The notes under the pieces were generated by a model. The model did not search any database and had not been told where the DNA came from. It saw only the letters and a program-made list of their open reading frames with translations. A stretch of DNA of 28,998 bases, from assembly GCA_965223205.1 (NCBI GenBank), contig CBDCWB010000009.1:1-28998 (forward strand). Reading direction: 5' to 3'. Of the stretch, positions 5,135 to 28,998 are shown piece after piece. The stretch comes from Candidatus Eiseniibacteriota bacterium. GTDB taxonomy: Bacteria > Eisenbacteria > RBG-16-71-46 > CAVPCR01 > CBDCWB01. A program made the position numbers and the translations under genes. The stretch's first letter is position 1; the number at the start of each line of letters is the position of its first letter.

Positions 5135-5146
5135 CCGCTGCATTGG

Positions 5147-6160: not shown

Positions 6161-6168
6161 GAGCGCAA

Positions 6169-6722: not shown

Positions 6723-6725
6723 CGT

Positions 6726-7486: not shown

Positions 7487-7489
7487 CCC

Positions 7490-8071
7490 GTGCGATTCAG
7501 CCTGACTGTGGACGCAAGCGACCCTCGGAAACGCCTAAATGAAATCAGTGGCAAACTCGATCGTGAGCTCAAAAGCGCAAACCGCTCGAACGAGCGCGCC
7601 GTTCGGGATGCAGTGCGCTCAAGGCTGCGTGGAAACACGGGGAGCGGTTCCCTTTCCAGGCGGTCGGGAAACTACGAGCGCCGAATCCAAACGTCGTCCA
7701 GGGTTAGAGCGCCCGAAGCTCACACGCTTGTGTTCGTGCGGACGCGTGGACCACGAGCGGTACGACAAGCTCGCATTCTCGAACTCGGCGGAACTGTCCG
7801 TGCCAAAGGAGGGCGATATCTCGCAATTCCGCTTGGTGCCGTCGCCAAACAGCGCAACCCGTCTCCGCGAAACCACCCAGATGGATTCTTCTTTCGGTCG
7901 CGGCGCGGCAATCTTCTATACGGCGAGCGCGCCGGAACCGGGCTTGTCCCCCTGTTTGTGCTCAAGCGATCGGTCACCATTCCACCGCGGCCCATCTGGC
8001 GGCTTTCGGCGGAGGAAGCAAGAGCGAAGGTCGTGGACCGCTACTTTGACGCCGTCACGAGATCGGTATGA
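7490..8071 (+). CDS. Hypothetical head-tail joining / tail completion-region protein.
   Basis: GTG start 3 nt after the upstream stop. Assignment is by position. Confidence 0.45.
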   Translation: MRFSLTVDASDPRKRLNEISGKLDRELKSANRSNERAVRDAVRSRLRGNTGSGSLSRRSGNYERRIQTSSRVRAPEAHTLVFVRTRGPRAVRQARILELGGTVRAKGGRYLAIPLGAVAKQRNPSPRNHPDGFFFRSRRGNLLYGERAGTGLVPLFVLKRSVTIPPRPIWRLSAEEARAKVVDRYFDAVTRSV

Positions 8072-8889
8072 GCCAATACACACAACTTGAGGGCAGCCTC
8101 AAGGCCACGCCGAGCGCCGCCGCGTTCTGGCGAGAAGAACATCGGCAGTGGCATTTGAGGCTTGACGACACGGGTGGTCACGTGCGCGGCCGCGTCTATC
8201 GTTTCGAAGCCGACGCGGTCGCGGACACAGGCAACCATCAGGCAGAAGGCGTGGTTTCGTTGGCCGACGGGCAACTTGCCCTTCTGGTTCTGTCGACAAC
8301 TGGCCTCGCCCCAAAGTTTGGCTCATTCGCATCGGTTCTCGTGTCGCTGGAAGAAGCGAGCCCGGGCGCTTCGTGTGTTTGGCGGGTAGATTTGGGTCCA
8401 CAGATGCAGCGCTGCCATTTGCGAATCCTGCGACACGTTCGGGACCTAATGGTACCGGCGAACGGATATGCGTTTATCCCGAGAGTTGTTGAGCTGGGAA
8501 ACGCAACCACATCCGTGCTCAACGTTGCTTCCAACAACGTGCCATACGTTGTCGTGGACCATGGCGCCTACGACCTGGCGTTTGACGAAAAGTCTGGTGG
8601 AGCAATCACGCACACGCTTGATTTTCGTCTTTTGGCTGTCTTGGCAGTCAGCGGTAGGACCGACAACCGCGGTGCGCCCGATGTCAACGCTATGTGGGCG
8701 CTGCACGATCTTCGGCGAGCGCTTGTGGCCGCGCGACGCCAGCCATACCTTGGTGACGGATCGATTATCTCGGCGCTGTCGGTCGTGTACGCAAGGCCCG
8801 ACACGCCAGACCCCGGGGAAAACGTAGTTGTCGCTTGTGACATTGCGGCGCGAATCAACGAAACAAAGGACGGCGTCAACGCCGCGTGA
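8068..8889 (+). CDS. Hypothetical neck / tail terminator-region protein.
   Basis: ATGA overlap with the upstream gene. It immediately precedes the major tail protein gene. Confidence 0.5.
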   Translation: MSQYTQLEGSLKATPSAAAFWREEHRQWHLRLDDTGGHVRGRVYRFEADAVADTGNHQAEGVVSLADGQLALLVLSTTGLAPKFGSFASVLVSLEEASPGASCVWRVDLGPQMQRCHLRILRHVRDLMVPANGYAFIPRVVELGNATTSVLNVASNNVPYVVVDHGAYDLAFDEKSGGAITHTLDFRLLAVLAVSGRTDNRGAPDVNAMWALHDLRRALVAARRQPYLGDGSIISALSVVYARPDTPDPGENVVVACDIAARINETKDGVNAA

Positions 8890-13339: not shown

Positions 13340-13343
13340 GATC

Positions 13344-16013: not shown

Positions 16014-16014
16014 G

Positions 16015-16941
16015 ATGGCCCTCTCTCGCGAATCCAAGCAGCTATTCCTCCTTGGCAATTACTTGTTCGAGGATGCGGAGGTCTCCGTCGCGGAGTCGAG
16101 CACTGGTGACTTCTTGTATCCACTTTCGAACGCGCTAGACCCGCGAACGAGCCGGCCGGCGAGGTTTAGCACTTCAGGTTCGTCAAGCAAGGACCTGGTG
16201 TTTCGGTGTGCCTCGGGCCTTGCCGGTGACTTTTCGGCTTTCCACCCCGACTGCATCCTCGTCGCGGGACTTGGCAACCGCACTGACACTTCAAGCAGTT
16301 TTGAGCAAGACGGCCTCGATGTAACGGTCTACACAGCGACATCGGCTACTGGACCATGGACAGCCATTGCCATTCACGTTTGGGACCCAACGAACGGAAA
16401 CGCAATCTTGCTCGACTTCGAGGAGAACGGAGTAAGCACTGCGCTTCGGAAGCGGCAATGGTGGCGGATTCAGTTCGAGAAAATAGGGGCTGGGAACCTT
16501 GCGGCGGTCGATGTTGGAGCGGTGATGCTCGCAAACCGGTACGTGAGCACTCACAACGTGGAGGCGCCATACACGGTTGAGGTCAACAATTTGAACGTTG
16601 TGACTGGGGAGGACACGGCTTCTCTTGCCGTGCATAAGTCCAACGCTCCGGCAATCCGGCACGTCGGACGGTTTTGGATTGAGTCGGACGAAGAGCGGCA
16701 CAAGCTGATCCAAAGGCTCCGCGGGTACGACGGAGTTCTTCAACCCAGCCGATTCAATCACTTCGAGCGGCTTAACTGGCCATGCGCCTTTGTGGATCCC
16801 TTTAGCTGGGTCTCGGGATCCGGCCTTGCTGTTGGCGTCCCCACCCTGGGCTATCTTGTTCGGTCGCGGGTGACGACTGAGAACACGTTCGATCACGTTT
16901 GCGATTTCGTATTCGACGAGATTGCAGGTTCACTGAGTTAG
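16015..16941 (+). CDS. Putative tail/baseplate component (308 aa).
   Basis: ATG 2 nt after the upstream stop. Assignment is by position. Confidence 0.5.
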   Translation: MALSRESKQLFLLGNYLFEDAEVSVAESSTGDFLYPLSNALDPRTSRPARFSTSGSSSKDLVFRCASGLAGDFSAFHPDCILVAGLGNRTDTSSSFEQDGLDVTVYTATSATGPWTAIAIHVWDPTNGNAILLDFEENGVSTALRKRQWWRIQFEKIGAGNLAAVDVGAVMLANRYVSTHNVEAPYTVEVNNLNVVTGEDTASLAVHKSNAPAIRHVGRFWIESDEERHKLIQRLRGYDGVLQPSRFNHFERLNWPCAFVDPFSWVSGSGLAVGVPTLGYLVRSRVTTENTFDHVCDFVFDEIAGSLS

Positions 16942-17004
16942 AGATGTGCAACGCCGCCTAGGTTTGCCTGGCGCCCAAAGAGAATAAACGATACATTCGA
17001 GCTA

Positions 17005-17442
17005 ATGCATACCGTCACGCTGACAAGATGGGGCTCGACCCCGATGGGGACCTTCGGCGAGCTGCGCGCTCCGGAGTTTCGGTGCTACACCGTCGAGCCG
17101 CCGTGGAGAGGCAACGCGCGATACCTCTCGTGCATCCCGCCAGGGGTCTATCGGTTGGAGTTGGGTTCGTACCATGTCGGTGGGTACCCGGCCTATGAGC
17201 TGGTAGGTGTGCCCGGTCGAGATCTCATCAAGATTCACGCGGCAAACCGGGCACGCGAGTTGCTCGGCTGCATCGCCGTTGGAAACGACTTAGCTTGCAT
17301 CAACGGCGAGTGGGCTGTGCTCAATAGTCGCCGGACGCTAAAGCGTTTGCACGCCGTGCTCGCGCGAATGGAGAGCAAGGGCTTGGCGCCGGCGATTAGG
17401 ATCGACTGGCGGGTGATCTCAGAGCGCCTGGAGTACGCGTGA
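17005..17442 (+). CDS. YkuD-like (L,D-transpeptidase catalytic fold) protein, a candidate peptidoglycan peptidase or endolysin.
   Basis: The motif IKIHAANRARELLGCIAVGN resembles the H...(S/T/G)xGC(I/V) catalytic His/Cys signature of LD-transpeptidase domains. It sits after the tail genes, where lysis cassettes usually lie, and follows a 63-nt lower-GC intergenic spacer. Confidence 0.4.
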   Translation: MHTVTLTRWGSTPMGTFGELRAPEFRCYTVEPPWRGNARYLSCIPPGVYRLELGSYHVGGYPAYELVGVPGRDLIKIHAANRARELLGCIAVGNDLACINGEWAVLNSRRTLKRLHAVLARMESKGLAPAIRIDWRVISERLEYA

Positions 17443-17756
17443 TGGCTGACAATGGGTCCTCAAAAACCAACGGAAGGTCGGTGGTGCTCAACAACTACAT
17501 CAAGGTTGTTTGGGGGTCCGTTACAGCGTTTGTGTTGTTCTTCTTTGCGGCCGACCGGTACACAGAACACAAGATAGTGACGCTTGCGCCTTACGCGCAG
17601 GAAAAACGATTGGTTGACCAGCGTTTCTCCGACATCGACCGGCGCGTTTCGGCGGTGGAGTCCAGCGCCGCTGGGATCCACTCGCAAATTGCTCTTGTTA
17701 ACCAGTCGCTGGGAGAGATAAAGGGGAAGCTCGATGTTTTCATGGATCAGAAATAG
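17442..17756 (+). CDS. Single-TM membrane protein with a C-terminal coiled coil (holin- or i-spanin-like).
   Basis: One hydrophobic helix (VVWGSVTAFVLFFFAADRY). It is followed by a heptad-like segment (LVDQRFSDIDRRVSAVESSAAGIHSQIALVNQSLGEIKGKLD). Start is coupled to 17005..17442. Confidence 0.4.
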   Translation: MADNGSSKTNGRSVVLNNYIKVVWGSVTAFVLFFFAADRYTEHKIVTLAPYAQEKRLVDQRFSDIDRRVSAVESSAAGIHSQIALVNQSLGEIKGKLDVFMDQK

Positions 17757-19527
17757 AGAGCGCTTGGTGTGTGTGTTGGTGCTGTTGTTCGTGGTGCTGC
17801 TTTGCGCGTATGGCGTCGCAACAGCAAGCCCGTCGCGCACCGAGGCCTTGCGCGCGGCCGAAACGATCCTTGAGTATTTGAGTGCGCCGGCGGACACGAC
17901 TGGCGGTGGCGGACCCGGTGGTGCCGGCGGAGGCGGTGAGCCCGACGTGCCGCGTGGGTGGCAGGCGGGGAGTACGGTGCTCTCAGCCGGAAGGGATGGT
18001 GATAGTGATGCGCGGTTGTCGGGCGCCGTCTCCCCGGTGGCGCTGGTCCAGCACCGGGCCGAGTGGCTTCTCTACTACGTCGGGTCCGAGGGCGATCGTC
18101 AGGACGACGGTGGCCCGCGGCGCCGGCGCCTCATAATCGCCACTTCGCCCGACCTAGAGAGGTGGACTAAGCGTGGCGTGGCGTTTGAGTGGCTACCCAA
18201 CGCCGCCGAGGAGGAAGCGGTCTACTCCGCTGCCATCCTCGCCGAGGGTGACGAGGTGCGGGCGTGGGTGACCGCGTGCACCCAGACGCGTGAGCCGCGG
18301 CCGGGCAGGCCGGGAGCGGTCTCCTGTGACGTGCGCTACCTCACGTCACAGGACGGCCGCCGTTTCCGCGACCGGGGCGAGGTCCTGAGTCACCGGGACC
18401 CAGGCGTCTGGGGCCACGGTGACGAGCTGTTCACCGTGGCCGCTCGCCGGCGCCCGGGCGGCGGGTTGCAGCTCTGGTACCTGGCGCGCTCTGGCACCGC
18501 CGCGCGCGAGCTGGGAGTTGCGGAGATCGACGCCGGCGGCCGGGTTGTTAGGACCGGCCCAGCGCTACCGGGCGTCGAATGGGTCGACAACGTCGAGGTC
18601 ATTGGCAACCTGGCGACAGTTGACGACAAGAGGTCAACGCGTACCACGGTCTACCGGGTGCGCCCCAACGGGCGCCTCGGCGAGCGTGTCGGCGAGTGGC
18701 GCGACCTGGGCGCGGGAGACTCGCCAAATTACTGCCTCTGGTACGACTCCGCCGGGTGGCGGATGGTGTACCGAGACGGCGAGCGGCTAAGGTGGGCCAA
18801 CGCCACTGGCACGTCAGCCAGCCAGGGCGGTGGCAGCGGGGGCGGTGGGTCCGGTGGCGGATCGTCGGGGGGCGATCCTGCCGGGCTCCGTCCCTGTGAC
18901 TGGCCGGTTGTCGGGGATGGATATTGCGTAGAGCGCGGCGGACGTCAGTGGGCAGTGCGCAAACCGGACAAGGTCCGGGACCTCGGCGACGGCGTCGTCT
19001 GGTTTGGCACTCGCAACGCCTCGTCCACCCTCGTGTGGGATCCGCCGGCGCGCTCTGGTTGGTGGGAGTGGCAAGCGTGGTACGAGCCCGGGTGCTTCCC
19101 TGCTGCGCGCGGGCGGGGCAAGCACTATCACTCGATGTTCCAGCACCGCCTTGATCTGGGCGGCCGGTACCGAGACGAACTGGACGAAATGACAGTGCTT
19201 AGGTTCGAGATCGCGGACCTGGGGACGCGCCCGCGCGGCATCGTCTGGCTATACGATGACGACTTTGCCGGGCGCGCCGAGCTGGTCATGCCCTGCGGCC
19301 AACCACCCGAGCATGGCCGCTGGTACGACTGGCGCTTTGAGTGGGCGATCGACGCTCGTGACGAACTCGTCATCCGCGTAACGCGCGACGGTGAGGAGCT
19401 TTGCGCGGGGGAGGTCGCGGTGCCCGGCGCCCAGGGCTTTGGGCAGCTCATGCCCTGGGGCCACGTCGAAGGCGTGATTGACGAGGATGCTGGGGTCCGC
19501 ATCCGCAACATGAGGTGGGGTAGATGA
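17734..19527 (+). CDS. Secreted multi-domain protein. It has a signal peptide or TM segment, a beta-propeller glycoside-hydrolase-like domain (GH43/GH32-like), a Gly/Ser linker, and a Trp-rich C-terminal beta domain.
   Basis: N-terminal MFSWIRNRERLVCVLVLLFVVLLCAYGVATASP. The motifs WLLYYVGSEGD and LIIATSPDLERWTKRGVAFEW resemble the blade motifs of 5-bladed beta-propeller glycosidases. The linker is SQGGGSGGGGSGGGSSGG. The C-terminal domain has WYDWRFEW. Confidence 0.45.
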   Translation: MFSWIRNRERLVCVLVLLFVVLLCAYGVATASPSRTEALRAAETILEYLSAPADTTGGGGPGGAGGGGEPDVPRGWQAGSTVLSAGRDGDSDARLSGAVSPVALVQHRAEWLLYYVGSEGDRQDDGGPRRRRLIIATSPDLERWTKRGVAFEWLPNAAEEEAVYSAAILAEGDEVRAWVTACTQTREPRPGRPGAVSCDVRYLTSQDGRRFRDRGEVLSHRDPGVWGHGDELFTVAARRRPGGGLQLWYLARSGTAARELGVAEIDAGGRVVRTGPALPGVEWVDNVEVIGNLATVDDKRSTRTTVYRVRPNGRLGERVGEWRDLGAGDSPNYCLWYDSAGWRMVYRDGERLRWANATGTSASQGGGSGGGGSGGGSSGGDPAGLRPCDWPVVGDGYCVERGGRQWAVRKPDKVRDLGDGVVWFGTRNASSTLVWDPPARSGWWEWQAWYEPGCFPAARGRGKHYHSMFQHRLDLGGRYRDELDEMTVLRFEIADLGTRPRGIVWLYDDDFAGRAELVMPCGQPPEHGRWYDWRFEWAIDARDELVIRVTRDGEELCAGEVAVPGAQGFGQLMPWGHVEGVIDEDAGVRIRNMRWGR

Positions 19528-19787
19528 GCGCGGTCGATATCGTGAGTGAAGCGATCCTTGTCAAGTCTCCAAGGTACGAGCCAGCGTCGGGCGAGTACGT
19601 CGTTTGGGATGGAGACGTAGTGTTCGGCTGTCCAAAGTGTGGCGGCCTCACCAGGCTCACCGACAATCATCGCGTGGGCCGCGATGGGTTGGTGCGACCC
19701 TCCGTCGTGCACACTCCGTGCGGGTGGCACGTCTGGTTGCGCTTGCGCGGTTGGACCCACCATGAGGACGCCGGGATTAGGAGATGA
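19524..19787 (+). CDS. Small Cys-containing (CPKCGG ... TPCGWH) hypothetical protein.
   Basis: ATGA coupling to the upstream gene. A GAGGTGGGG RBS is present. The Cys spacing suggests a zinc-ribbon-like fold. Confidence 0.5.
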   Translation: MSAVDIVSEAILVKSPRYEPASGEYVVWDGDVVFGCPKCGGLTRLTDNHRVGRDGLVRPSVVHTPCGWHVWLRLRGWTHHEDAGIRR

Positions 19788-20170
19788 ATTGGATGACATG
19801 GTCACCCGGCCACACCGACGCGCTTCTGATCGCCAACGCGATCGTCGCCGTGATCCTCGAGTGGCGCACGTTGGCCAACGCCGTGCCCGGTGACCACATC
19901 ACGCCGCGCCTCCGCCGGTTGCTGAGGCAGAGCTGGGCGTGGCCGTACTTCCTCGGCGGGCTGTTTGCCCACTTCGCGCTCTACGCGCTGTTCGAAGCGG
20001 TGCGACCACCGTGGCCGTACGTCGTGGCGCTCGCCGCCTGGTTCTTTTCTGTCTGGGTTGTGTTTGTTTTTGGCGCCGGGTTCCGGCGCTCCGGTGGCTA
20101 CACGTCGCCGGCGATCGTTGGGGTGCTGTCGCTCGCCGGGATGGTGTGCGGCGGCTTTCTGTGGGGGTGA
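19784..20170 (+). CDS. Integral membrane protein (3-4 predicted TM helices), holin-like or exclusion-like.
   Basis: ATGA coupling with an AGGAG RBS. Hydrophobic helices include ALLIANAIVAVILEW, WPYFLGGLFAHFALYALF, YVVALAAWFFSVWVVFVFGAGF and IVGVLSLAGMVCGGFLW. Confidence 0.55.
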   Translation: MNWMTWSPGHTDALLIANAIVAVILEWRTLANAVPGDHITPRLRRLLRQSWAWPYFLGGLFAHFALYALFEAVRPPWPYVVALAAWFFSVWVVFVFGAGFRRSGGYTSPAIVGVLSLAGMVCGGFLWG

Positions 20171-20173
20171 GAG

Positions 20174-20446
20174 ATGGTGGCGAAGATTTTGGCGCTGAAA
20201 ACACCAAGCGACACCGTGCGGACCGTGGTTGGCTGGCGCACGATCCTTGGGATCGTCATGCTGGCCGTGCTAGATGGATTCCGCGAGGTCGGAATCGAGT
20301 TGGGCGCAGTGGCCGGCGTTGTGCGCGCCGTGGCCGACGTGCTACTCGGCGGCGGCCTGATTTTCAAGGCGGCGAAGATCACCGACTTGCTGCGCAACGG
20401 CAAAAAGCCAGCGCACATCGAATCAATCCGGGTGCAAAACACATGA
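20174..20446 (+). CDS. Small membrane-associated protein (about 1 TM).
   Basis: A GGGGGTGAGAG RBS is present. Hydrophobic segment WRTILGIVMLAVLDGF. The stop overlaps the next start (ATGA). Confidence 0.5.
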   Translation: MVAKILALKTPSDTVRTVVGWRTILGIVMLAVLDGFREVGIELGAVAGVVRAVADVLLGGGLIFKAAKITDLLRNGKKPAHIESIRVQNT

Positions 20447-20757
20447 GGGCGCTACTCTGGGTGTTGCTCTGCCTCGCCCTTTGCCCCCAAGCCGAAGCGC
20501 ACCAACCGCCTAGTTGGGTACCCGTGGCCTATGGCAAGCTGTCGGCGACGCTCCCCATCATCCGCCTAGACGACAAGGATCGGATGCCCGGCGCACGCGC
20601 AACCTTCGGTCTCGAGTGGACCAAGCTCGGCAGCCGCTATTTCGTGACCGCCGAGTATCACCGCAACTTCGAGCAACTCAGTGGCGGGCGTGTGTGGCCG
20701 TGGCTAGACGCGGTTGAGGTGGGAGTGGGGTGGTACTTCTTGGATCCGGAAAGCTAA
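20443..20757 (+). CDS. Small secreted protein with an N-terminal signal peptide.
   Basis: The sequence begins MRALLWVLLCLALCPQAEA followed by a mature part. The ORF-track start at 19939 is rejected because 19939..20442 is Arg-rich overlap junk. Confidence 0.55.
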   Translation: MRALLWVLLCLALCPQAEAHQPPSWVPVAYGKLSATLPIIRLDDKDRMPGARATFGLEWTKLGSRYFVTAEYHRNFEQLSGGRVWPWLDAVEVGVGWYFLDPES

Positions 20758-21035
20758 AAACGAACGCCATATATCTGTGTTATGAATATTGTCCTCTCGT
20801 CTTCGCCGAATTTGTAAGAACACCCCCAGAAGCACCTCGCCCCGTTCGCGTCGATCTCGAATCGGAAGTCGGGCCGGCCCAGGTGTGTCGTTCCGCGCCT
20901 CGGACTTGATGCCAGCCGATGCAATGCAGACTCGACGCCGTCTAGCGCGGCGTCTTGGCACTCGTCGGGCAGGTTGTTCACCAGTTCGCGAAGCCCATTC
21001 TTGGCTGTATCAGTGATTCTGAGCTCGTAGCTCAT
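20754..21035 (-). CDS. RelE/ParE-superfamily-like toxin (93 aa).
   Basis: By-eye alignment to E. coli RelE: ...LASSPRRGTTHLGRPDFRFEID... against ...LESPRIEANKLRGMPDCYKIKL..., and ...ARCFWGCSYKFGEDERTIFITQIYG against ...YRLVYQVIDEKVVVFVISVG. It overlaps the upstream Panacea-like gene by 26 nt. The locus is lower-GC. Confidence 0.55.
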   Translation of the reverse strand: MSYELRITDTAKNGLRELVNNLPDECQDAALDGVESALHRLASSPRRGTTHLGRPDFRFEIDANGARCFWGCSYKFGEDERTIFITQIYGVRF

Positions 21036-21588
21036 TCATCACATCTGCGAGAGGCTGGCTCCTGCCCGCCTCTACGTCCGCTTCCCCAGCGAGCATGCTT
21101 GACAGACTGAAGCCCGAGTGCTTGCGAGCCGCGTTGTCAACGATGTGCATCGGCACATTCTCCTTTGGGCTCGCCTGGAGCATTGGCTCTGTCTTGTAGA
21201 CGACTTCTTCGCAGACGTACCTCGCGGACATGTTGAGATACGTTTCGCCAACGTAGCTCAAGACCTCTTGTTCTTCCACCGTGAAGTCGTCGTACGTCGA
21301 CTTCAGTGGTCGCAGGTCGTGCGCAGCGTATTGGCCGCATGAGACTTGGTTGTCCGCAACAAAGCCTTTGTTAGTTAGCTCTGAGAGCGCCTTATAGAAC
21401 CGCCTCGAATCAAACGGACCAAAGTCATCGTAAATGTACGTGAAAGACGATATGGGCACACCGCGATAACGGCGGGACTCCAGGTCGGCTAGGTAGACGA
21501 ACTTCGCCAACAGCGTGTGTCCGATTCCTGGGGCAATCTGCAGAAGATACAATAGTACCCGCGCATCGCGGCTGAGTTCATCAGGCAT
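21010..21588 (-). CDS. Panacea-domain (DUF4065)-like protein, the putative antitoxin partner (PanA-like). The start is the ATG at 21588, downstream of the ORF-track start.
   Basis: LLAKFVYLADLESRRYRGVPISSFTYIYDDFGPFDSRRFYKAL resembles the DUF4065 core (KLQKLLYxAQ...G.PLF...F.AW.YGPV....Y). An AAGGGGAAG RBS lies 5' of the ATG at 21588. Its 3' end overlaps the small toxin-like ORF. Confidence 0.5.
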   Translation of the reverse strand: MPDELSRDARVLLYLLQIAPGIGHTLLAKFVYLADLESRRYRGVPISSFTYIYDDFGPFDSRRFYKALSELTNKGFVADNQVSCGQYAAHDLRPLKSTYDDFTVEEQEVLSYVGETYLNMSARYVCEEVVYKTEPMLQASPKENVPMHIVDNAARKHSGFSLSSMLAGEADVEAGRSQPLADVMNELRAQNH

Positions 21589-21843
21589 CTTCTTCCCCTT
21601 CCGTTCCCAAGGCAAGTGTTCCAGTTCAGGTAACGGCGACCGCAACCACCAGCTTAACATGCAGACTACACAAAAGATGCGGTCTTGGTTTCACATTGTA
21701 AGGAGAAAACCGACCAGCTCCGGAGTCTGGTGGCTGCAACCAGCACTCCCCGGCCGGTTATCCAGCCTATCCATAGTAGCATCCCCCCTGCACTACACTC
21801 CGCCACCAGCAAAGGACGTACTCCTCAACCGTCGGACCCCACA
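21589..21843. promoter_or_regulatory. Divergent promoter/operator region between the Panacea-like operon (-) and the XRE regulator (+).
   Basis: A 255-nt non-coding gap between divergently oriented starts. It is lower in GC than the flanking genes. No motif was assigned with confidence. Confidence 0.4.
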
Positions 21844-22143
21844 ATGCCCGCTCGACAGATGCGCAGGAGGCGCGGCGACGCCAATCGTCGGCGCCAGTTT
21901 GGCGTTTGGCTCCGGGAGTGCCGGATCCAGGCCGGCTTGACCCAGGGCGAAGCCGCCGAAGCGATTGGGGGGACGTGCACCCGGTCGACTGTGTACCGCT
22001 GGGAGACGGGACGCCACGCTCCGCCGATCAACGTCATGGTGGCGCTCAAGCGGCTGTACGGGTTCGAGTGGAGCGAGGTCGAGGAGATGGCGCAGTTTCT
22101 CCCGATGCGAGACGACGCCGGGAAGAAGCGGGGCAGCGCCTAG
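21844..22143 (+). CDS. XRE-family HTH transcriptional regulator (99 aa).
   Basis: FGVWLRECRIQAGLTQGEAAEAIGGTCTRSTVYRWETGRHAPPINVMVALKRLYG is a classic Cro/C1-type HTH. No clear SD is present. It is convergent with the HEPN-like gene and overlaps it by 4 nt. Confidence 0.65.
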   Translation: MPARQMRRRRGDANRRRQFGVWLRECRIQAGLTQGEAAEAIGGTCTRSTVYRWETGRHAPPINVMVALKRLYGFEWSEVEEMAQFLPMRDDAGKKRGSA

Positions 22144-22604
22144 CTCTTTCCTTTGGCGGCTTTCTCGGGATCCATGGGCTCGTTTGGTATTAGCGCGAGC
22201 GAAACTTCGTCGATCGTCTTGTCGCAGATCTCGTCGAGCGTGGCTCTCAGGTCCTTGATCGCTTGCTTCATGAGAGCCAGGTTGTCCATTTTCCTGTCGC
22301 AATAGTCCTTCTGAGCGCCCTCAGTGATGTACAGGTTTGAGTGCACCACCTCGTTGCGCCGCTTCGCCATATCCTCGGCGCCTGGGATCGGGAGACACCT
22401 TTCCACGTCGCCGAGCGTTTTCTTGACGATGTCCTTGTCGGTCAGGCCCCTGGTGTCTTTGCGCATCATTAGATGCAATTTCATCGCTCGCTCAACAGCG
22501 ACGTACGCCAGCAGCGCTGCGGCGTATGGATACTTGCAGCGTAGCTCGCCGATGGCCTCAATTGTCTTTCTTTCAGCTTCTTGCATTCGTGTCCTTCGTT
22601 CCAT
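22140..22604 (-). CDS. HEPN-like protein (putative RNase fold) carrying an Rx4-6H motif.
   Basis: The motif AKRRNEVVHSNLY reads R-N-x3-H. The rest is an all-alpha composition. The start at 22604 has a GAGGA 5 nt upstream. It overlaps the 3' end of the GxxExxY gene by 32 nt. Confidence 0.45.
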   Translation of the reverse strand: MERRTRMQEAERKTIEAIGELRCKYPYAAALLAYVAVERAMKLHLMMRKDTRGLTDKDIVKKTLGDVERCLPIPGAEDMAKRRNEVVHSNLYITEGAQKDYCDRKMDNLALMKQAIKDLRATLDEICDKTIDEVSLALIPNEPMDPEKAAKGKS

Positions 22605-22983
22605 TTGTATCCTCGCTAGGGCGGTCAACGCCCTGGAAATCCGGTGCATCCTTGTCCGGATACGGAAAGTTCACCAGCACGCCCGAGGGGATCCCGATCG
22701 TTTTGAGGTAGGAGCGTAGCTGTGCGACGTGCGACTTACTAAGGCTGGCGGCAGCCTTCAGCTCGACCACGACTTTCCCATCGACGACGAAGTCGAGTTT
22801 GTGGATGCCCACCTTGCGGTTCTTGTAGAACACTTCGGTGGTTCTCTCGATCTCGTAGTTGATCCCGCGCAGCCCGAACTCCACGGCCATCGCCTCTTCA
22901 TAGACGACCTCGGCGTAGCCACCGCGCAACTCAGAGTAGACTTCGCAGGCGCAATCCTTGATTGTTTCTTGCAAGGTGCTCAT
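22573..22983 (-). CDS. GxxExxY family protein (PD-(D/E)xK nuclease-like fold).
   Basis: LRGGYAEVVYEEAMAVEFGLRGINYEIE...VGIHKLDFVVDGKVVVELKAAASLSKSHVAQLRSYLKTIGIPSGVLVNF matches the family signature (G.GF.E.VYE.AL..EL...G.......YK...VG.YR.D.LVE..IVELKA.....H.AQL.NYLK..G...GLLINF). Confidence 0.75.
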   Translation of the reverse strand: MSTLQETIKDCACEVYSELRGGYAEVVYEEAMAVEFGLRGINYEIERTTEVFYKNRKVGIHKLDFVVDGKVVVELKAAASLSKSHVAQLRSYLKTIGIPSGVLVNFPYPDKDAPDFQGVDRPSEDTNGTKDTNARS

Positions 22984-23009
22984 GGCAGTTCTTCTTTCCT
23001 GGGACACCG

Positions 23010-23606
23010 CTACATCAACTGATAGCTGCAACTTGTGCATGAAAATTCATGTGCAGAGTTCGTGGCGGCGCACTTTGGGCACGTCCATGGCTGGGCATCG
23101 CCCGAAGCGATCCATGGTTTGGCTGACGAAGCCGAAATCGCCTGATCCTTGTATGCGCCTACACCATACTGCACAGCAGCAATCAGCACGCACACCACGA
23201 GAAAGCGCCACAACCACGCGGTCCACTGTTCTGGCTTCCTTGTTGTTGGCTTCGTTGGTACCCCAATCGATCGAACGTGTTCAACACTAACCCAGACCAG
23301 TTTTCCCGCGTGTTTGCCCTCTAGTACGCGTACCTCACGTGACCACCACCCGTCACGACTTATCGGATTGCATGGCGTGCCGCTCGGAACACGAAAAACA
23401 ACGCCGCTGCTTAGTAGCTGTTTAACCCCAAGGTCATCGTCAGCCGCCAGAAACTGCCCGAGGCGATCGAGAGCGGCCTTAGAAGTTGCTGCAAACACGA
23501 GCTCTGAGTTCGCTCTTAGGCAATACTCTGCCCCCGCAGTTCCCTCTTGCTGGCCGGCAACTCCCATGAGAAACACCGTGGCTATCAGGCGGTTTGTTGT
23601 GCGCAT
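23010..23606 (-). CDS. Membrane protein. It has an N-terminal hydrophobic/signal segment, a soluble middle domain, an internal TM helix, and a C-terminal zinc ribbon (zf-ribbon_3-like).
   Basis: N-terminal MRTTNRLIATVFLMGVAG. Internal TM helix WTAWLWRFLVVCVLIAAVQYGVGAY. C-terminal WTCPKCAATNSAHEFSCTSCSYQL. An AGGGG RBS sits 5 nt before the ATG at 23606. It starts 8 nt after the TPR gene stop and ends 27 nt before the GxxExxY start. Confidence 0.55.
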   Translation of the reverse strand: MRTTNRLIATVFLMGVAGQQEGTAGAEYCLRANSELVFAATSKAALDRLGQFLAADDDLGVKQLLSSGVVFRVPSGTPCNPISRDGWWSREVRVLEGKHAGKLVWVSVEHVRSIGVPTKPTTRKPEQWTAWLWRFLVVCVLIAAVQYGVGAYKDQAISASSAKPWIASGDAQPWTCPKCAATNSAHEFSCTSCSYQLM

Positions 23607-23614
23607 TACGGCCC

Positions 23615-24844
23615 CTATCTCACTTGACGTTGAGTCTCTTCCACCTCCCAAACATCCCCGACCTCCCGAAATCCAGAAAGCGCTGCTTCAAAGTGTTGCT
23701 TCGCATCGTCGGCGCCGCCCAACGCCTGGAGCGCCACCGCGATGGCGCGGTGCGCGGCGGCGACCTCGAGCGGATCCTCGAGCATCTCGGCCCGGTCGCG
23801 GGCCGCTCGAGCCATGTGTAGCGCGCGGCGGTGGTCGCCCATTGCATTGTAGCAGTCGGCTTGGAGCCGTGTGCACTCCGGCCAGGTGTCACTGCGCGGT
23901 GATGGGTCCAGCTCGATGGCTCGGAGGAAGAGCCGGATGGCGACTTTGGGGCGCCCCTGGTCAGCGATGATGCGGCCCAGGTAGGCGATGCAGATGGAGT
24001 GCTGGCGCGGCCGGCCGTGCTTGATCGCTACACGAGCGCCGTCAATGGCTAGCTGCCTTGCGGCGCAAAGCGCGCCGGTCCTGCGCAGCGCTTCTGCACA
24101 GACAGCCTTTGTGCTTGCTGTTAGTGCGGCGAAACCTCGCGCTTTTGCCGACTGCTCTGCCGACTTGGCCACCTCAATGGCGTCCTCATGTCTGCCGAGG
24201 TGCATGCAACACACTGCGTGGTTGACCGCGGCGGCGATGTCGCTTTGCGGTGCGGTTGCGGCGGTCTGTGAGGCGGCGGCCGCGAGAATCTCCAAACCAC
24301 GCTCGAACCTTCGCATTCGAATTGCGATGCGTGCCCGTGCCCTGGCGGCGCCGACAGACTCCGTGTGCTGTTCGAGGTTGGCGTAGAGAGCACTCGCCGC
24401 CTCGAGCGCAGAGTCAGCTGCGGTTAGATCGCGATTGACGGATGCGAGCTTTGCCTTTGCCAGGAGCAGCTCGGCGGTCGCAACCATCGCGCTCGCCGCA
24501 TTTGCTACCGCGATCGCGTTCGCAAGATGCTCTTCAGCGTCTTCGATGGCCCCTGCTTCGCAGGCCACGCGCGACGACAGTGCGTGCGCTCGCGCAATCT
24601 CAGACGCGTCGACGCCGGCGAACAAGGAGCACAGCTCGGCCGCGGCGTCGCGTGCCTCATGGATCTGTCCAAATTGGAGAAGTGAGTGAACAAGCTGTAG
24701 GAGGCAGAAGTGGCGCGACGAGATGCCGAGGCTATTGTCCCTCAGTTGGTACTTGTAGCGCAGAACGGCTGCTCTGGGGTCTTCGGAGGGCGTGGCCACG
24801 GTGAGGTCGTCGACAATGGGATCGCAACCGCCCACCGTGGCCAT
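23615..24844 (-). CDS. TPR-repeat (all-alpha) protein of 409 aa with no recognisable HTH.
   Basis: Many Ala-rich helical hairpin repeats (...AIEVAKSAEQSAKARGFAA...AIRLFLRAIELDP...). A GGGAGG RBS is present. Start is 12 nt downstream of the small peptide gene. Confidence 0.6.
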   Translation of the reverse strand: MATVGGCDPIVDDLTVATPSEDPRAAVLRYKYQLRDNSLGISSRHFCLLQLVHSLLQFGQIHEARDAAAELCSLFAGVDASEIARAHALSSRVACEAGAIEDAEEHLANAIAVANAASAMVATAELLLAKAKLASVNRDLTAADSALEAASALYANLEQHTESVGAARARARIAIRMRRFERGLEILAAAASQTAATAPQSDIAAAVNHAVCCMHLGRHEDAIEVAKSAEQSAKARGFAALTASTKAVCAEALRRTGALCAARQLAIDGARVAIKHGRPRQHSICIAYLGRIIADQGRPKVAIRLFLRAIELDPSPRSDTWPECTRLQADCYNAMGDHRRALHMARAARDRAEMLEDPLEVAAAHRAIAVALQALGGADDAKQHFEAALSGFREVGDVWEVEETQRQVR

Positions 24845-24856
24845 GTGTCGACCTCC

Positions 24857-25063
24857 CTAGAGCAACAGCAGCAAGGTTGTGCCTAGGACCCGAAAAACGA
24901 CAAAACCCGAACCGGCTGCGCGCCCGCCGGTCTCATCGTCCTCGTCCGGCACTCCAGCCTCCTCACACCCACACTCCCCATCATCATCGCACGCCGTCGT
25001 TGGCAGCGGCGCTGCCAGAAACGCTAGAATCAGGCAAACGCTCAAAAGGCTGCGAACTCGCAT
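24857..25063 (-). CDS. Small secreted or membrane-anchored Cys-rich acidic peptide (68 aa from the ATG at 25063).
   Basis: Sequence MRVRSLLSVCLILAFLAAPLPTTA | CDDDGECGCEEAGVPDEDDETGG...GFVVFRVLGTTLLLLL. It has a signal-peptide-like N-terminus, a GCGC acidic core, and a hydrophobic C-terminus. A GGGAG lies 6 nt upstream. Confidence 0.45.
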   Translation of the reverse strand: MRVRSLLSVCLILAFLAAPLPTTACDDDGECGCEEAGVPDEDDETGGRAAGSGFVVFRVLGTTLLLLL

Positions 25064-25219
25064 TTTCAACTCCCAGGAACTTGGGGCACTCTGGCGCCCG
25101 GGCCGTCTTGGCTTGGCCCTTCCTTGGGTGCGATTCGCGTTGTACGGCGCAGATCCAAGCTAGCAAGTTTCTAGCGGGCAGGCAATAGGTTGTGCCGAAA
25201 GCCGTTCCCCGGAGGCTCG
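25064..25219. promoter_or_regulatory. Divergent lysogeny-control intergenic region. It contains the inverted repeat GCTAG-N7-CTAGC (25159-25175), a candidate operator.
   Basis: 156-nt gap between the peptide/TPR operon (-) and the tandem-HTH regulator (+). The repeat is gctagcaagtttctagc. Confidence 0.35.
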
Positions 25220-25753
25220 ATGCGCGACAGGGTGTCGCTACTACACGCACAGGGAGTGCGAAAAACCGTCGGCGAGTGGCTTAAGTGGCTCCGGTTGAAT
25301 AGCGGCCTCCGGTTGCCACGCCAGGCACAGCAGCTTGGAATCGAGGAGTCCGTGTTGCGGGATCTCGAAGAGGATCGGGCCGAGCCGAGCGCGAGCATTG
25401 CGCTGCGGCTTGCTGACTTCTACCGGCTCTCGGAGCGAGAGCTTAGGATCGTGTTCGGCGTGCCGCGCGGCATCGACGTCGATCCTCCTCTACTGCATAC
25501 ACGCACAGAAACCGCTACAATCGAGTCCATGGACCAAGTGGACCACATAGGAACTGCGATCAGGGAGGGGCGTGATCGTGCCGGCCTTACTCAGCAGCAA
25601 GTTGCCGAGATGATCGGAGCCTACAGACCCGACCTCTCCGACTGGGAGCGAGGCGAGCGCACTCCCAGTGCCGTTACCCTCCTGCGACTCGCCCGAGCGT
25701 TACGACTCGACCTCAATCGCCTCGCCCGAAGATTCTCGCTTGACAAAACGTAG
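25220..25753 (+). CDS. Tandem-HTH (2x XRE-type) transcriptional regulator, candidate prophage repressor.
   Basis: A GGAGG sits 4 nt upstream of the ATG. HTH 1 is LKWLRLNSGLRLPRQAQQLGIEESVLRDLEED. HTH 2 is IREGRDRAGLTQQQVAEMIGAYRPDLSDWERGERTPS. It is divergent from the peptide/TPR operon and lies 5' of xis-int. Confidence 0.65.
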   Translation: MRDRVSLLHAQGVRKTVGEWLKWLRLNSGLRLPRQAQQLGIEESVLRDLEEDRAEPSASIALRLADFYRLSERELRIVFGVPRGIDVDPPLLHTRTETATIESMDQVDHIGTAIREGRDRAGLTQQQVAEMIGAYRPDLSDWERGERTPSAVTLLRLARALRLDLNRLARRFSLDKT

Positions 25754-25775
25754 AGATTAGTATACCTTAGTAAAC

Positions 25776-25796
25776 GTCGACCGGGGGTCGGTCGAC
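25776..25796 (+). terminator. Perfect hairpin GTCGACCG-ggggt-CGGTCGAC located 23 nt after the regulator stop (no U-tract).
   Basis: 8-bp perfect inverted repeat with a 5-nt loop, seen directly in the sequence. The terminator/operator role is inferred. Confidence 0.35.
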
Positions 25797-25884
25797 ACTC
25801 CCAGGGGGAGGCGGGTAGGTGGTCTTGGCATTGTCGCCGCCCGCCTCCTGGGGCAAATCACCCAACTCTACCACGATTGCCAAA

Positions 25885-26079
25885 ATGGCAAAGCGGAGAG
25901 ACCTCGACATCCTGCTGACTGCGGGAGAGGTGGCCCAGCTGCTCCGGACGACACGGAGAGCGGTCTACTCCCGGGTACAGCGGGGCGAGATTCCCGGGGT
26001 GGTCAGGGTGGGGCGGTCGCTCCGGTTCCAGCGGGCGGCGGTGCTACAGTGGCTCCGGGCGTGTGGCCCTCTAGAATAG
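25885..26079 (+). CDS. xis: Excisionase / AlpA-like HTH DNA-binding protein.
   Basis: MAKRRDLDILLTAGEVAQLLRTTRRAVYSRVQRGEIPGVVRVGRSLRFQRAAVLQWL is typical of the excisionase-family HTH. It lies immediately 5' of the integrase. Confidence 0.7.
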   Translation: MAKRRDLDILLTAGEVAQLLRTTRRAVYSRVQRGEIPGVVRVGRSLRFQRAAVLQWLRACGPLE

Positions 26080-26089
26080 GAGGGCTCAA

Positions 26090-27190
26090 ATGACCGTGAA
26101 GGTCCGGCCGTACCGTCGGGGTGGTTGGGAGGTGGATCTCAGGGTAGTGCTGCCAGACGGCAGCGAGTTTCGTGAGCGTCGCAAATCACCGCTAACGTCG
26201 CGAGAGGGATCGCGGCGGTGGGGTGAGGCTCGCGAGCGAGAGTTGGTTCGTCGGGGCTTTCGGCCCCGGCGCAACGTCAAGACGCTTGGGGGGTTCGCGG
26301 AGATGTATCTCGAGTACATGGCGAGCAATCGTTGCAAGCCTAGCTACATCGACGCGCACCGCAAGTTGATCGCGGCTCACCTTAGCCCGCTGCTCGGGCA
26401 GGTCAGGCTCGATGCCATCGACCAGCCGGCAGTGGAGCGGCTCAAGGCACGACTTTCGGGTCGGGCGGCGAGTACGACCAACAACGCGCTGATCTGCCTG
26501 AGTGCAGTGCTGCGCGCTGCTGTGGCGCTTGGTGAGTTGGGTGAGGCTCCCTGCGTCATTAAGCACGTGCGGTCGGTCGAGGCGGATGAAGTGGCGTTCT
26601 ACGACGTCGCAGACTACGCCCGACTAGTGTCGGCAGCGCGGGAGCAGGATCCGCGCACCCATCTCGTGGTGTTGCTGGGTGGGCGTGCGGGGCTCAGGTC
26701 CGGGGAGATGATCGCTCTCCGCTGGGACCGCGTTGACTTCCGTCGCCGGCAGATCGCGGTGACGAGCTCGTCATGGAGGGGTGTGGAGACGGCGGCCAAG
26801 AGTCGCCGGAAGCGCATCATCCCGCTGGCACAGTCGCTGTTGGATGCGTTGCGTGCTCATCAGCACCTGCGCAGTCGCTACGTCCTTTGTAGTGAGGACG
26901 GGGCGCCGATAGGCTACTACAAGATGCGAGGGTTGATCCGTCGCGCTTGCAAGCTTGCCGGTGTCGAGTTTCGTGGGGTGCACGTGCTGCGCCACACGTG
27001 TTGTTCGCACCTCGCCATGGCGGGGGTGCCTGTGCGTGTGATCCAGGAGATTGCCGGCCATCGGCAGCTGGCGACCACGCAGAGGTACATGCACTTGTCT
27101 CCTTCGCGCGTCGACGACGGCATCCGAGTGATGGATGCTCTTGGAGACGCTTGGGAGACGCAATCTACGGAGAGCTGCAAGTCGTGTTAG
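26090..27190 (+). CDS. int: Tyrosine recombinase / phage integrase.
   Basis: An AGGAGGG RBS is present. The C-terminal catalytic signature ...LRHTCCSHLAMAGVPVRVIQEIAGHRQLATTQRYMHL shows the H-x-x-R ... Y pattern. The N-terminal region is a core-binding domain. Confidence 0.85.
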   Translation: MTVKVRPYRRGGWEVDLRVVLPDGSEFRERRKSPLTSREGSRRWGEARERELVRRGFRPRRNVKTLGGFAEMYLEYMASNRCKPSYIDAHRKLIAAHLSPLLGQVRLDAIDQPAVERLKARLSGRAASTTNNALICLSAVLRAAVALGELGEAPCVIKHVRSVEADEVAFYDVADYARLVSAAREQDPRTHLVVLLGGRAGLRSGEMIALRWDRVDFRRRQIAVTSSSWRGVETAAKSRRKRIIPLAQSLLDALRAHQHLRSRYVLCSEDGAPIGYYKMRGLIRRACKLAGVEFRGVHVLRHTCCSHLAMAGVPVRVIQEIAGHRQLATTQRYMHLSPSRVDDGIRVMDALGDAWETQSTESCKSC

Positions 27191-27214
27191 GGAGTCACTT
27201 GCGGGTTGAGATCA

Positions 27215-27264
27215 GCGGTTTCCTAAACCGCGTGTCGGGTGTTCGAGTCGCCCCGGGGGCGCCA
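27215..27264 (+). other. 3' portion of tRNA-Arg(CCU): anticodon arm, variable loop, T-arm, acceptor 3' strand and CCA. It has no matching 5' half, so it is read as the prophage attachment-site core (attR-type orphan copy).
   Basis: Anticodon stem gcggt/accgc with loop ttCCTaa (U33, A37). Variable loop is gtgtc. T-arm is gggtg-TTCGAGT-cgccc. Acceptor 3' strand is cgggggc, discriminator g, then CCA ending at 27264. The required 5' strand gcccccg is absent upstream, where the integrase lies. Confidence 0.6.
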
Positions 27265-27307
27265 ACCGGCTCGTGGTGTCTCGGTGCTCAGCGCCGCGCG
27301 GCCGGAC

Positions 27308-27943
27308 CTAACGTGAAGCGTGGACGTAGTGCGCCTTGACGCGCCCCCAGCTTGCAGCCGCCACCGGCACCGCGCCAGGCGAGCAAGCGTTGTGACCGCC
27401 AGCCCCGACGCACACCCGGCCGCGATTCTCCGGGGGGATGACGGTTGAGACTCCAGATGGGGTCTTGACGTGGGTACCACCTGGCACGCTCGAATCGACC
27501 ATTTCGAAGCAGCCTGAACCGGCGCTCGAGAAGTGATGGCGACCGATCGGAGCGATGCTGCCGCCGGTGATCGCATCGAAGCTCAACCATAAAGTGGCGC
27601 CTTCACCAGTTCCCCACCGCGGGCTGGCGCCGTGGTAGTGGGAGATGTTCGATTGACAATCCCAGAGTCCGAATTGCCAATTCCAGCTCGGGTCGATCTG
27701 AAAGGCGACTTGGAGGAACGACACCGAGTCGTGGTGGCGAAGTGCAACCGCCACCGCCGGCGTCGTCATGCCGGCGACGTCAAGCGTGGGTTGGGTTGAA
27801 ACACAGTCGTAAGCCGCAGACTGGGCGCACGAGCCGAAAGCGCCGTCGAACGCGTGCGCGATGATTGTCGTGTTCTCATTGATTGCAAGCGCCGGTAGAG
27901 ACAGGCAAATGCTCAGGATAAAAGTGCAGATAAGACGAGCCAT
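27308..27943 (-). CDS. Secreted hypothetical protein (signal peptide MARLICTFILSICLSLPALA). It lies outside the prophage and is probably a host gene.
   Basis: Cys/Trp/His-containing mature part. It is convergent with the tRNA fragment. Confidence 0.5.
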   Translation of the reverse strand: MARLICTFILSICLSLPALAINENTTIIAHAFDGAFGSCAQSAAYDCVSTQPTLDVAGMTTPAVAVALRHHDSVSFLQVAFQIDPSWNWQFGLWDCQSNISHYHGASPRWGTGEGATLWLSFDAITGGSIAPIGRHHFSSAGSGCFEMVDSSVPGGTHVKTPSGVSTVIPPENRGRVCVGAGGHNACSPGAVPVAAASWGRVKAHYVHASR

Positions 27944-28279
27944 GCGAACCTCCCGTCGTCTTCCGGAGACGAGACTCTTCCACTAGAAGCCTGCCGGATT
28001 CTCTGGTTTCCGGCAACTACGTCTCCTGGTTTCTGGCGACTTCGGACCTCCAACCTCGGTCTGGCCCGATGAGCGCAGGGGGTTGGGCCGGTCAGGGTGC
28101 TGCGAAACCGAACGCTTTTGACGCAAACCACGGCCGAGCCTGTTTGCTCCACGGCTCTGCTGGCAGTTGTTGTCGAATTTGTTGCCACAGTCGCGGGGCC
28201 GGCGTTACCATGAGTCTGTAGGTGGACCGTAGCCTGTGGGCCGGCTACGCCGATCAATCGCTGGGAAGGAGGTCGCCTG

Positions 28280-28998
28280 ATGGGACGCCCAGTCCGAACT
28301 GCCTTGGCCGCAGGTGCTCTATGGCTCGCTGCGCTGCCAACCGCTCGGGCTGAGTGGTCGGCTGATCCCGCCCTTAACTTGCCCATCGCTACGCAGCCAG
28401 CCGCTGACATCTTGCCGAAAGTCGCTGTCCTTGGGCCCGGTACCTTTGTTGGTTGGTTCACGGCCGCGGGCGGTGCCTTTGAGCTGCGCCTCCAGTACCT
28501 GGATGCGCGGGGCGTCCCACAATTTCCAGCCGGCGGGCTTTTAGTTTCTGACCATCCGCAGGCCTCATTCTTGGTCGATTGGGATTTGTTGGCCATCGAC
28601 AATGCCGCGGTCTTGGTGTTTGCAGACACTCGACACGGGCCCGACTTTGACGTCCATGCCTATCGCATCGACACCACCGGCAACTTCCTGTGGGGGGATG
28701 ACGGGGTCACCTTGTCAGCCAACGACGACCTGGATGCGGCGCCGCGCGTCGCCGTCAAGGGTGGAGGTTTTGCGGTAGTTTGGTCACGCCATCCAGATCA
28801 GGGCGATGGCGCGTTGATGATGCAATACCTCGACATGGATGGAGCGTCCCAACTGGAGCCGGGCGGTCGCCAGGTGGCTGGGTCGCCGGGCGAGTCCCCC
28901 GGGTTCGCATCGATTTCGACCTTTGCGCATGTTCCTGATCCAGCGCGCGGCGGCGCCGCCATTCCCTCCGTTTTTGCTTCCTGGGTGCGCGACGTTTC
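28280..28998 (+). CDS. Secreted hypothetical protein, 3'-partial (runs off the window end).
   Basis: A strong GGAAGGAGG RBS 7 nt upstream of the ATG. Signal peptide MGRPVRTALAAGALWLAALPTARA. The frame is open to the window end (translated by hand, no stop). Confidence 0.6.
   Translation, partial: MGRPVRTALAAGALWLAALPTARAEWSADPALNLPIATQPAADILPKVAVLGPGTFVGWFTAAGGAFELRLQYLDARGVPQFPAGGLLVSDHPQASFLVDWDLLAIDNAAVLVFADTRHGPDFDVHAYRIDTTGNFLWGDDGVTLSANDDLDAAPRVAVKGGGFAVVWSRHPDQGDGALMMQYLDMDGASQLEPGGRQVAGSPGESPGFASISTFAHVPDPARGGAAIPSVFASWVRDV

Follow-up and report, generated by a model that had tools for sequence, protein, structure and literature searches.

The window examined here is the 28,998-bp contig CBDCWB010000009.1 of a Candidatus Eiseniibacteriota bacterium (assembly GCA_965223205.1), which is a temperate phage or prophage fragment. 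Its stretch between 20.75 and 23.65 kb, called the island below, holds six genes: a toxin-antitoxin (TA)-like pair, a small helix-turn-helix (HTH) regulator, and genes for a HEPN-like protein, a GxxExxY protein and a membrane protein with a zinc ribbon. The initial annotation took positions 20760-23610 for a cargo island of low G+C content (GC) embedded in a prophage of roughly 70% GC, and proposed that these genes were acquired horizontally as one or more cassettes. Our analysis indicates that the island is probably an ordinary mosaic accessory (cargo) region of a temperate phage, with a modest GC deficit that is mostly a matter of protein composition.

A dip in total GC was found at about the proposed coordinates. 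The stretch 20760-23610 has 57.2% GC, as against 62.2% in the rest of the contig and a contig mean of 61.7%. Hierarchical segmentation was uninformative and optimal partition was used in its place; it set off a segment at 20731-23700 with 57.0% GC, flanked by segments of 67.2% (17791-20730) and 63.5% (23701-28998). Per-gene total GC is also lower in the island than in the rest of the phage genes, the backbone (Mann-Whitney p=0.017). The hand counts behind the island proposal were reproduced, with 55.0% GC at 22141-22200, 73.3% at 1441-1500, 42.5% at 20758-20830 and 53.9% at 22140-22330. The 70% backbone, however, was not; the sample at 1441-1500 was drawn from a local high-GC patch, and about 70% GC is reached only in patches, at 1411-2370 and 17881-19500. 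Nor is the dip unique or uniform. The tail-gene segment 13231-17790, at 57.4% GC, is as low as the island, the lowest window of the island's size starts at 14161 (56.9% GC), and the HTH gene at 21844-22143, with 68-69% GC and a GC of 0.86 at third codon positions (GC3), interrupts the low-GC stretch. At a stricter segmentation penalty the low segment vanishes and only 17881-19500 (70.0%) stays distinct.

To ask where the dip comes from, 37 genes were called, GC was split by codon position, and the backbone's synonymous-codon frequencies were applied to each island protein. Backbone codon usage was defined from the phage genes themselves, possible host flank amounting to only about 1.7 kb of the window. 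Pooled GC1, GC2 and GC3 were 0.655, 0.504 and 0.711 for the backbone and 0.585, 0.426 and 0.664 for the five low-GC island genes, i.e., all but the HTH gene. These five genes lie 6.5 points below the backbone in total GC, and 68% of that deficit is accounted for by amino acids. For the four genes of soluble proteins (a 93-amino-acid (aa) open reading frame (ORF), the PanA-like antitoxin gene, the HEPN-like gene and the GxxExxY gene), the dip is again 6.5 points, amino acids account for 85% of it, and GC3 is 0.701. For the zinc-ribbon gene, with the same 6.5-point dip, the amino-acid share is 19% and GC3 is 0.553. Over all six island genes together, amino-acid composition accounts for 74% of the dip. 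Compared with backbone proteins, the island proteins have more Lys (+3.5 points), Glu (+1.7), Tyr and Cys, and less Gly (-3.0), Ala (-2.3) and Arg; GC1 and GC2 are lower because the small proteins of the island are rich in the former residues and poor in the latter.

Synonymous sites and oligonucleotide signatures gave a different picture from total GC. Per-gene GC3 did not differ between island and backbone (Mann-Whitney p=0.70); the island genes range from 0.66 to 0.86, apart from the zinc-ribbon gene at 0.553, and the backbone mean is 0.718 (standard deviation 0.064). Thus the profile expected of an imported island was borne out for total GC but not for codon usage. The dinucleotide distance delta* of the island is 46.3, compared to a mean of 57 for windows of equal size, 55% of which are at least as deviant. 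The tetranucleotide correlation of the island is lowish (5.7th percentile), yet the tail genes are more extreme. In the amelioration model of Lawrence and Ochman, recently transferred genes are said to deviate most at third codon positions and to ameliorate there first. By that reasoning the island does not look like a recent low-GC import, because its GC3 and dinucleotide signature match the backbone; the 0.6-kb zinc-ribbon gene may be an exception.

The zinc-ribbon gene (23010-23606, minus strand; P0005) is the only gene in the stretch with deviant synonymous-site composition. Its GC3 of 0.553, against 0.716 expected (z=-5.2), is lower than in any backbone gene (minimum 0.61), and synonymous sites account for 81% of its dip. 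A mis-called frame was considered as the source of the low GC3 and rejected, as no other ORF gave a stronger third-position signal in the codon-phase plot. The predicted 198-aa protein has an N-terminal hydrophobic segment, one internal transmembrane helix and, at the C-terminus, a CxxC...CxxC zinc ribbon. It had no family match, and no relatives were found in the metagenome scan.

The edges of the island were inspected for signs of insertion. At the left edge, a plus-strand gene (20446-20757) ends with a TAA at 20755-20757, and the minus-strand 93-aa ORF ends with a TAG at 20756-20754, so that the two convergent genes share stop-codon bases (CTAA). In the middle, the plus-strand HTH gene and the minus-strand HEPN-like gene likewise converge and share stop-codon bases at 22140-22143 (CTAG). 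Because both convergent pairs end on overlapping stop codons, there is no intergenic space for terminators. The right edge at 23610 falls in an 8-nucleotide (nt) gap on the same strand, between the stop of a TPR gene (23615) and the start of the zinc-ribbon gene (23606). On the minus strand the order is pre-peptide gene (25063/25069-24857), 12 nt, TPR gene (24844-23615), 8 nt, zinc-ribbon gene (23606-23010), 26 nt, GxxExxY gene (22983-22573), and, after a 14-nt overlap, HEPN-like gene (22586-22140). From this spacing the five-gene leftward string is a putative operon. The proposed right boundary of the island cuts through the string, because its 8-nt same-strand junction is with a TPR gene of backbone GC. 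Direct or inverted repeats flanking the stretch amounted to nothing beyond chance-level 12- to 24-mers, and no tRNA, Rfam RNA or mobility gene (recombinase or transposase) was found at its edges. A promoter and terminator scan gave one promoter-like and four terminator-like sites, both counts at or below the shuffle expectation; the promoter scan used the sigma-70 consensus, which may not be the host's promoter type.

In the reading that we favor, the cargo lies between the plus-strand virion, lysis and membrane genes and the repressor-excisionase-integrase module, and comprises two parts. One is the PanA-type TA-like pair, divergent from the small XRE-family HTH regulator; the other is formed by the three distal genes (zinc-ribbon, GxxExxY and HEPN-like) of a leftward string that starts with the pre-peptide and TPR genes beside the repressor. 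The genes would be either long resident or compositionally equilibrated, since neither GC3 nor the dinucleotide signature sets them apart from the rest of the contig, and gene-by-gene mosaic exchange over evolutionary time would fit the occurrence of HEPN-like homologues in unrelated contexts. The zinc-ribbon gene would be the exception, its low GC3 being compatible with a more recent single-gene replacement. Judged from domain families only, the role of the cargo in a lysogen would most plausibly be maintenance of the element and/or exclusion of other phages: the TA pair might act in addiction or abortive infection, and the HEPN RNase and PD-(D/E)XK nuclease might be the effectors.

The HEPN-like gene (22140-22586, minus strand; P0007) is the last of the leftward string and the only island gene whose homologues could be traced. 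The 148-aa product has the helical HEPN fold and an R-N-x3-H-S-N motif, in which the window protein carries RNEVVH; R77 and H82 occur without exception in 36 family members, and N78 in at least 90% of them. The HEPN label given initially is thus upheld by both the fold and the R-x4-6-H motif, and the protein is a putative RNase. Its family comprises 63 clusters at 50% identity among 1.84 billion representatives, with members of about 165 aa and an N-terminal motif YPYAAxLLxYxxIER; none of the Pfam, PADLOC and NCBIfam models covers it. The window copy lacks an insert of about 30 residues found in nearly all other aligned members.

Twenty loci with HEPN-like genes were gathered (L001-L023), of which 19 entered the GC comparison after one of two duplicate contigs was dropped. 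The HEPN-like gene has less GC than its surroundings in 16 of these 19 other loci (mean -4.5 points, Wilcoxon p=0.004). A low GC2 (0.29-0.47) recurs in every locus, so that the low GC of the family is partly intrinsic. At 0.73, GC3 in the window copy exceeds that of every other copy, which is what adaptation to its own replicon would lead one to expect. The contexts of the homologues are diverse, with many copies adjoining mobile-element or defence-type genes, and include an integrase fragment (L001), a Terminase_4 gene and a VRR_NUC protein; one homologue stands alone in a Gemmatimonadota metagenome-assembled genome, and other neighbors (an SDR protein, a membrane protein, an FRG protein) are unrelated. 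A conserved two-gene module of HEPN and PD-(D/E)XK proteins was considered, as VRR_NUC precedes one homologue (L003/L004), and was rejected: in none of the 20 loci is a neighbor related to any other gene of the island. Because there is no conserved neighbor in the 20 loci, the HEPN-like gene appears to travel alone, often on mobile elements; judged from these neighborhoods, it is not part of a conserved cassette. A separate observation concerns Nitrospira sp. RSF12 (L005, SWDI01000001.1, positions 4120-8082), in which the HEPN-like gene lies between genes for an EEP-family nuclease, an FRG-domain protein and a PIN (VapC)-like ORF. The PIN-like ORF and a small antitoxin-like ORF form a VapBC-like pair, judged from ORF translations only, and the neighborhood looks like a defence or TA island.

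Three other explanations of the dip were weighed. The cassette proposal, in which the whole stretch from the 93-aa ORF, initially labelled RelE-like, through the zinc-ribbon gene is one or more recent lower-GC cassettes inserted into a prophage of about 70% GC between a membrane cassette and the lysogeny module, has in its favor the 57.0% segment between flanks of higher GC, the lower per-gene total GC, and the scatter of HEPN-like homologues across unrelated mobile contexts; lower GC is also a classical attribute of phage morons (PMC2920897). Set against these are a backbone of 61.7% and not 70% GC, tail genes that are equally low, and a 69% GC gene in mid-stretch. Further, GC3 cannot be told from that of the backbone, dinucleotides are typical, and 85% of the four-gene dip comes from amino acids. 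The edges show no repeats, tRNA or mobility genes, and the overlapping stops and the 8-nt junction leave no room for insertion scars. We therefore consider recent cassette insertion very improbable. What does stand of the horizontal-acquisition proposal is that these are accessory genes in the usual cargo position and that HEPN-like homologues occur in unrelated, often mobile contexts; what does not is a discrete, recent low-GC insertion, given a GC3 of 0.70 against 0.71 in four of the five low-GC genes, typical dinucleotides and unmarked edges.

The remaining two explanations are sub-readings that do not exclude one another. Under one, only the zinc-ribbon gene (23010-23606) is a comparatively recent foreign replacement in an otherwise equilibrated string. 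The low GC3 (z=-5.2), the 81% synonymous share of the deficit, a GC1 that exceeds GC3 across 23160-23580, and neighbors on both sides with GC3 of 0.71-0.75 all point that way. Backbone genes, however, themselves have GC3 z values from -3.5 to +4.2, and a single outlier among 37 genes does not settle the matter; no homologue points to a donor, the 8- and 26-nt gaps hold no junction remnants, and the low GC3 could reflect weak expression or other mRNA constraints. On balance a foreign replacement is a tentative and somewhat unlikely explanation. Under the other, the apparent island is mainly a contrast with the high-GC block at 17.8-20.7 kb, especially its 597-aa gene, and the island itself sits at the low end of the normal range. 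That the strictest penalty splits off 17881-19500 only, that the 597-aa gene has a GC3 of 0.785 (z=+3.7) and a product without relatives in IMG/VR or GTDB representative genomes, and that the island equals the tail genes in GC all argue for such a contrast. Moderate penalties, on the other hand, still part the 57% segment from the right flank of 63.5%, per-gene total GC in the island is lower than in the whole backbone, and amino acids explain the dip without any contrast. We are doubtful that contrast is the main cause.

Several points weigh against our preference for a long-equilibrated mosaic cargo region. The backbone reference set is heterogeneous, as its span of GC3 z values indicates. 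HEPN-like homologues are usually below local GC elsewhere too, and some have a clearly foreign GC3 (L008, L019); because of these foreign-looking copies, the family does move horizontally. Those two copies have low GC3 as well as low total GC, unlike the window copy. Low GC1 and GC2 with an equilibrated GC3 also fit an old acquisition from a lower-GC source after amelioration, and composition alone cannot separate native from anciently acquired genes. The TA assignment is drawn solely from a Panacea domain and the gene layout, and the putative operon is drawn from gene spacing only. Finally, no relative of the phage, and hence no empty site, was found in IMG/VR, GTDB representative genomes, a set of 5.8 billion proteins or INPHARED.

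The TA-like pair occupies the left part of the island. The 216-aa antitoxin-like protein (21010-21660, minus strand; P0003), of the SocA/PanA type, matches Pfam SocA_Panacea (PF13274) over residues 51-149 (E=2.7e-8, 35.2 bits, cut-off 25.7). Its gene has 55% GC and a GC3 of 0.67, and translation could also start at 21588, where the purine-rich ribosome-binding site is better. The putative toxin partner, the 93-aa ORF (20754-21035, minus strand; P0002), overlaps the antitoxin gene by 26 nt, and the two are laid out as a putative type II TA pair. No homologue of the 93-aa product was detected and it gave no confident fold, and its initial RelE-like label is unproven. Kurata et al. 2022 (PMC8832971) defined PanAT pairs by partner distance and by two- or three-gene architecture; here the partner gene lies within 100 nt (the 26-nt overlap), and the divergent HTH gene is a possible third component. 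In the same work antitoxin-first was the common gene order, and PanAT pairs occurred in prophages, e.g., a validated Burkholderia pair. The non-coding spacer at 21661-21843, in which codon-phase GC is flat, separates the PanA-like gene from the XRE-family HTH gene (21844-22143, plus strand), whose 99-aa product matches Pfam HTH_31 (E=2.6e-14) and HTH_3 (E=5.4e-11). The spacer presumably holds divergent promoters and operators; no consensus sigma-70 match was found in it.

The remaining genes of the leftward string are of three kinds. The first gene encodes a pre-peptide of 68-70 aa (24857-25069, minus strand), with an ATG at 25063 after a GGGAG motif; in the product, a Cys/Asp/Glu-rich core is flanked by a signal-peptide-like N-terminus and a hydrophobic C-terminus, and the only family match was a weak one to an NCBIfam MYXO-CTERM protein (E=0.0098). 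Next is the gene for a 409-aa TPR protein (23615-24844, minus strand; P0006), which matches Pfam TPR_12 (E=3.1e-10) and other TPR families; its composition is that of the backbone (64.6% GC, GC3 0.71). The sole sigma-70-like match in 19.5-27.4 kb, a chance-level count, lies inside the TPR gene at 23875-23846 (minus strand; TG-extended, with TGCACA and TACAAT 18 nt apart). From there, 240 nt upstream of the zinc-ribbon gene, it might drive the three distal genes as an internal promoter. The GxxExxY protein (22573-22983, minus strand; 136 aa; P0004), of the PD-(D/E)XK nuclease superfamily, is encoded by a gene with GC3 of 0.75. Its initial identification is confirmed by scores above the curated cut-offs for both Pfam PDDEXK_3 (PF13366; E=1.2e-30, 106.8 bits, cut-off 22) and, at full length, NCBIfam TIGR04256 (E=1.3e-30, 106.2 bits, cut-off 35). 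PADLOC models recognised no defence system in the window, giving no more than weak matches, Cas4-like for the GxxExxY protein (E>=1e-4) and otherwise HTH.

Beyond the island, the contig encodes a major capsid protein of the HK97-type family (DUF6260/Linocin_M18 match), with 36% identity to Brevundimonas phage capsids, its best INPHARED match. It also encodes a minor-tail-like protein, a DUF5675 protein, an HTH_17 excisionase-like protein, a double-HTH repressor-like protein and a tyrosine integrase; it is because of these capsid, tail, DUF5675, excisionase-like, repressor-like and integrase genes that the contig is assigned to a temperate phage. The repressor-like gene (25190-25753) is divergent from the pre-peptide/TPR pair. 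No terminase or replication genes, tRNA, Rfam RNA, terminal overlap or att repeat were found on the contig, and the element is thus incomplete at its left end. Circularity and att repeats were looked for and none were detected, nor was any tRNA, Rfam RNA or att-like repeat found downstream of the integrase (27191-28998). A gene for a 211-aa signal-peptide protein of no known family (27308-27943, minus strand) lies beyond the integrase gene, in possible host flank.

Three other regions deserve mention for their composition. Tail genes in 13231-17790, including those for 889-aa and 316-aa proteins, have GC3 of 0.65-0.66 (z=-3.5 and -2.3). The 597-aa gene at 17734-19527 (69-70% GC) is the strongest compositional outlier on the contig; its product has an N-terminal hydrophobic segment and Gly-rich linkers, and its sole family match is a weak, GH32-N-like one (E=0.025). 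Were anything on the contig foreign in composition, the block of the 597-aa gene would be a better candidate than the low-GC stretch. A second high-GC patch is the gene at 1012-2658 (68.5% GC). Its 548-aa product combines an fn3 domain with a podophage Gp77 fiber-tail adaptor domain at the C-terminus (E=4.6e-22), and the gene's position upstream of the head genes is unusual.

The searches for relatives found few. The TPR, 597-aa and GxxExxY proteins had no match in IMG/VR, and the PanA-like protein had none when searched against phages. The 889-aa tail protein, searched against 5.8 billion proteins, matched only itself (no homologue at E<=1e-10). Six window proteins form singleton clusters, and so do all of the island proteins.

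The island shares features with several known systems. Phage morons, a concept of Hendrix et al. as summarised in PMC2920897, resemble it in that non-essential genes, including a TA-like pair, lie between conserved modules near the integration end, on the strand opposite to the virion genes and with lower total GC. The island differs in that no promoter/terminator bracket of its own was detected, the downstream end of a longer string, shared with genes of backbone GC, makes up half of it, the GC gap is largely non-synonymous, and no insertion relative to sister phages is demonstrated. Genomic islands are likewise contiguous lower-GC segments carrying accessory genes; here, however, GC3, dinucleotide signature, flanking repeats, tRNA and boundary mobility genes were all negative. 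The TA-like pair is like PanAT in its Panacea domain above the Pfam gathering threshold, its overlapping partner downstream of the antitoxin gene and its temperate-phage setting, but its 93-aa partner has no detectable homologues or established fold, and this PanA lacks an N-terminal HTH, a separate divergent XRE gene being present instead. Among HEPN RNase toxins and effectors (MNT-HEPN, Csm6/Csx1, AbiV), the window gene is set apart by the lack of an MNT/nucleotidyltransferase partner, of a Pfam or PADLOC model and of a conserved neighbor. The GxxExxY protein is a clear full-length match to a family whose function is unknown, and its pairing with the HEPN-like gene is not conserved. A peptide gene and a TPR gene next to a lysogeny module bring to mind, if only loosely, the RRNPP/arbitrium type of signalling; here, though, no HTH was detected in the TPR protein, and the two genes stand in the opposite order.

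These results show that a few 60-nt GC samples can mislead, the 70% backbone having come from a local patch, and that, once GC is split into amino-acid and synonymous parts, most of this dip says nothing about horizontal transfer. Lower-GC prophage cargo, Panacea antitoxins, HEPN proteins and GxxExxY proteins are known kinds, while the specific sequences here are orphans or near-orphans. The region adds a Panacea-antitoxin pair whose partner could not be traced, and a HEPN-like family that has no model and is often linked to mobile elements. The five-gene string and the adjacent PanA pair with its orphan toxin might together form an undescribed prophage anti-phage or superinfection-exclusion locus, in which a TPR/membrane sensor would control two nuclease effectors; we regard this as improbable. 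Should the string prove to be such a defence system, the catalogue of prophage-encoded defences would grow modestly.

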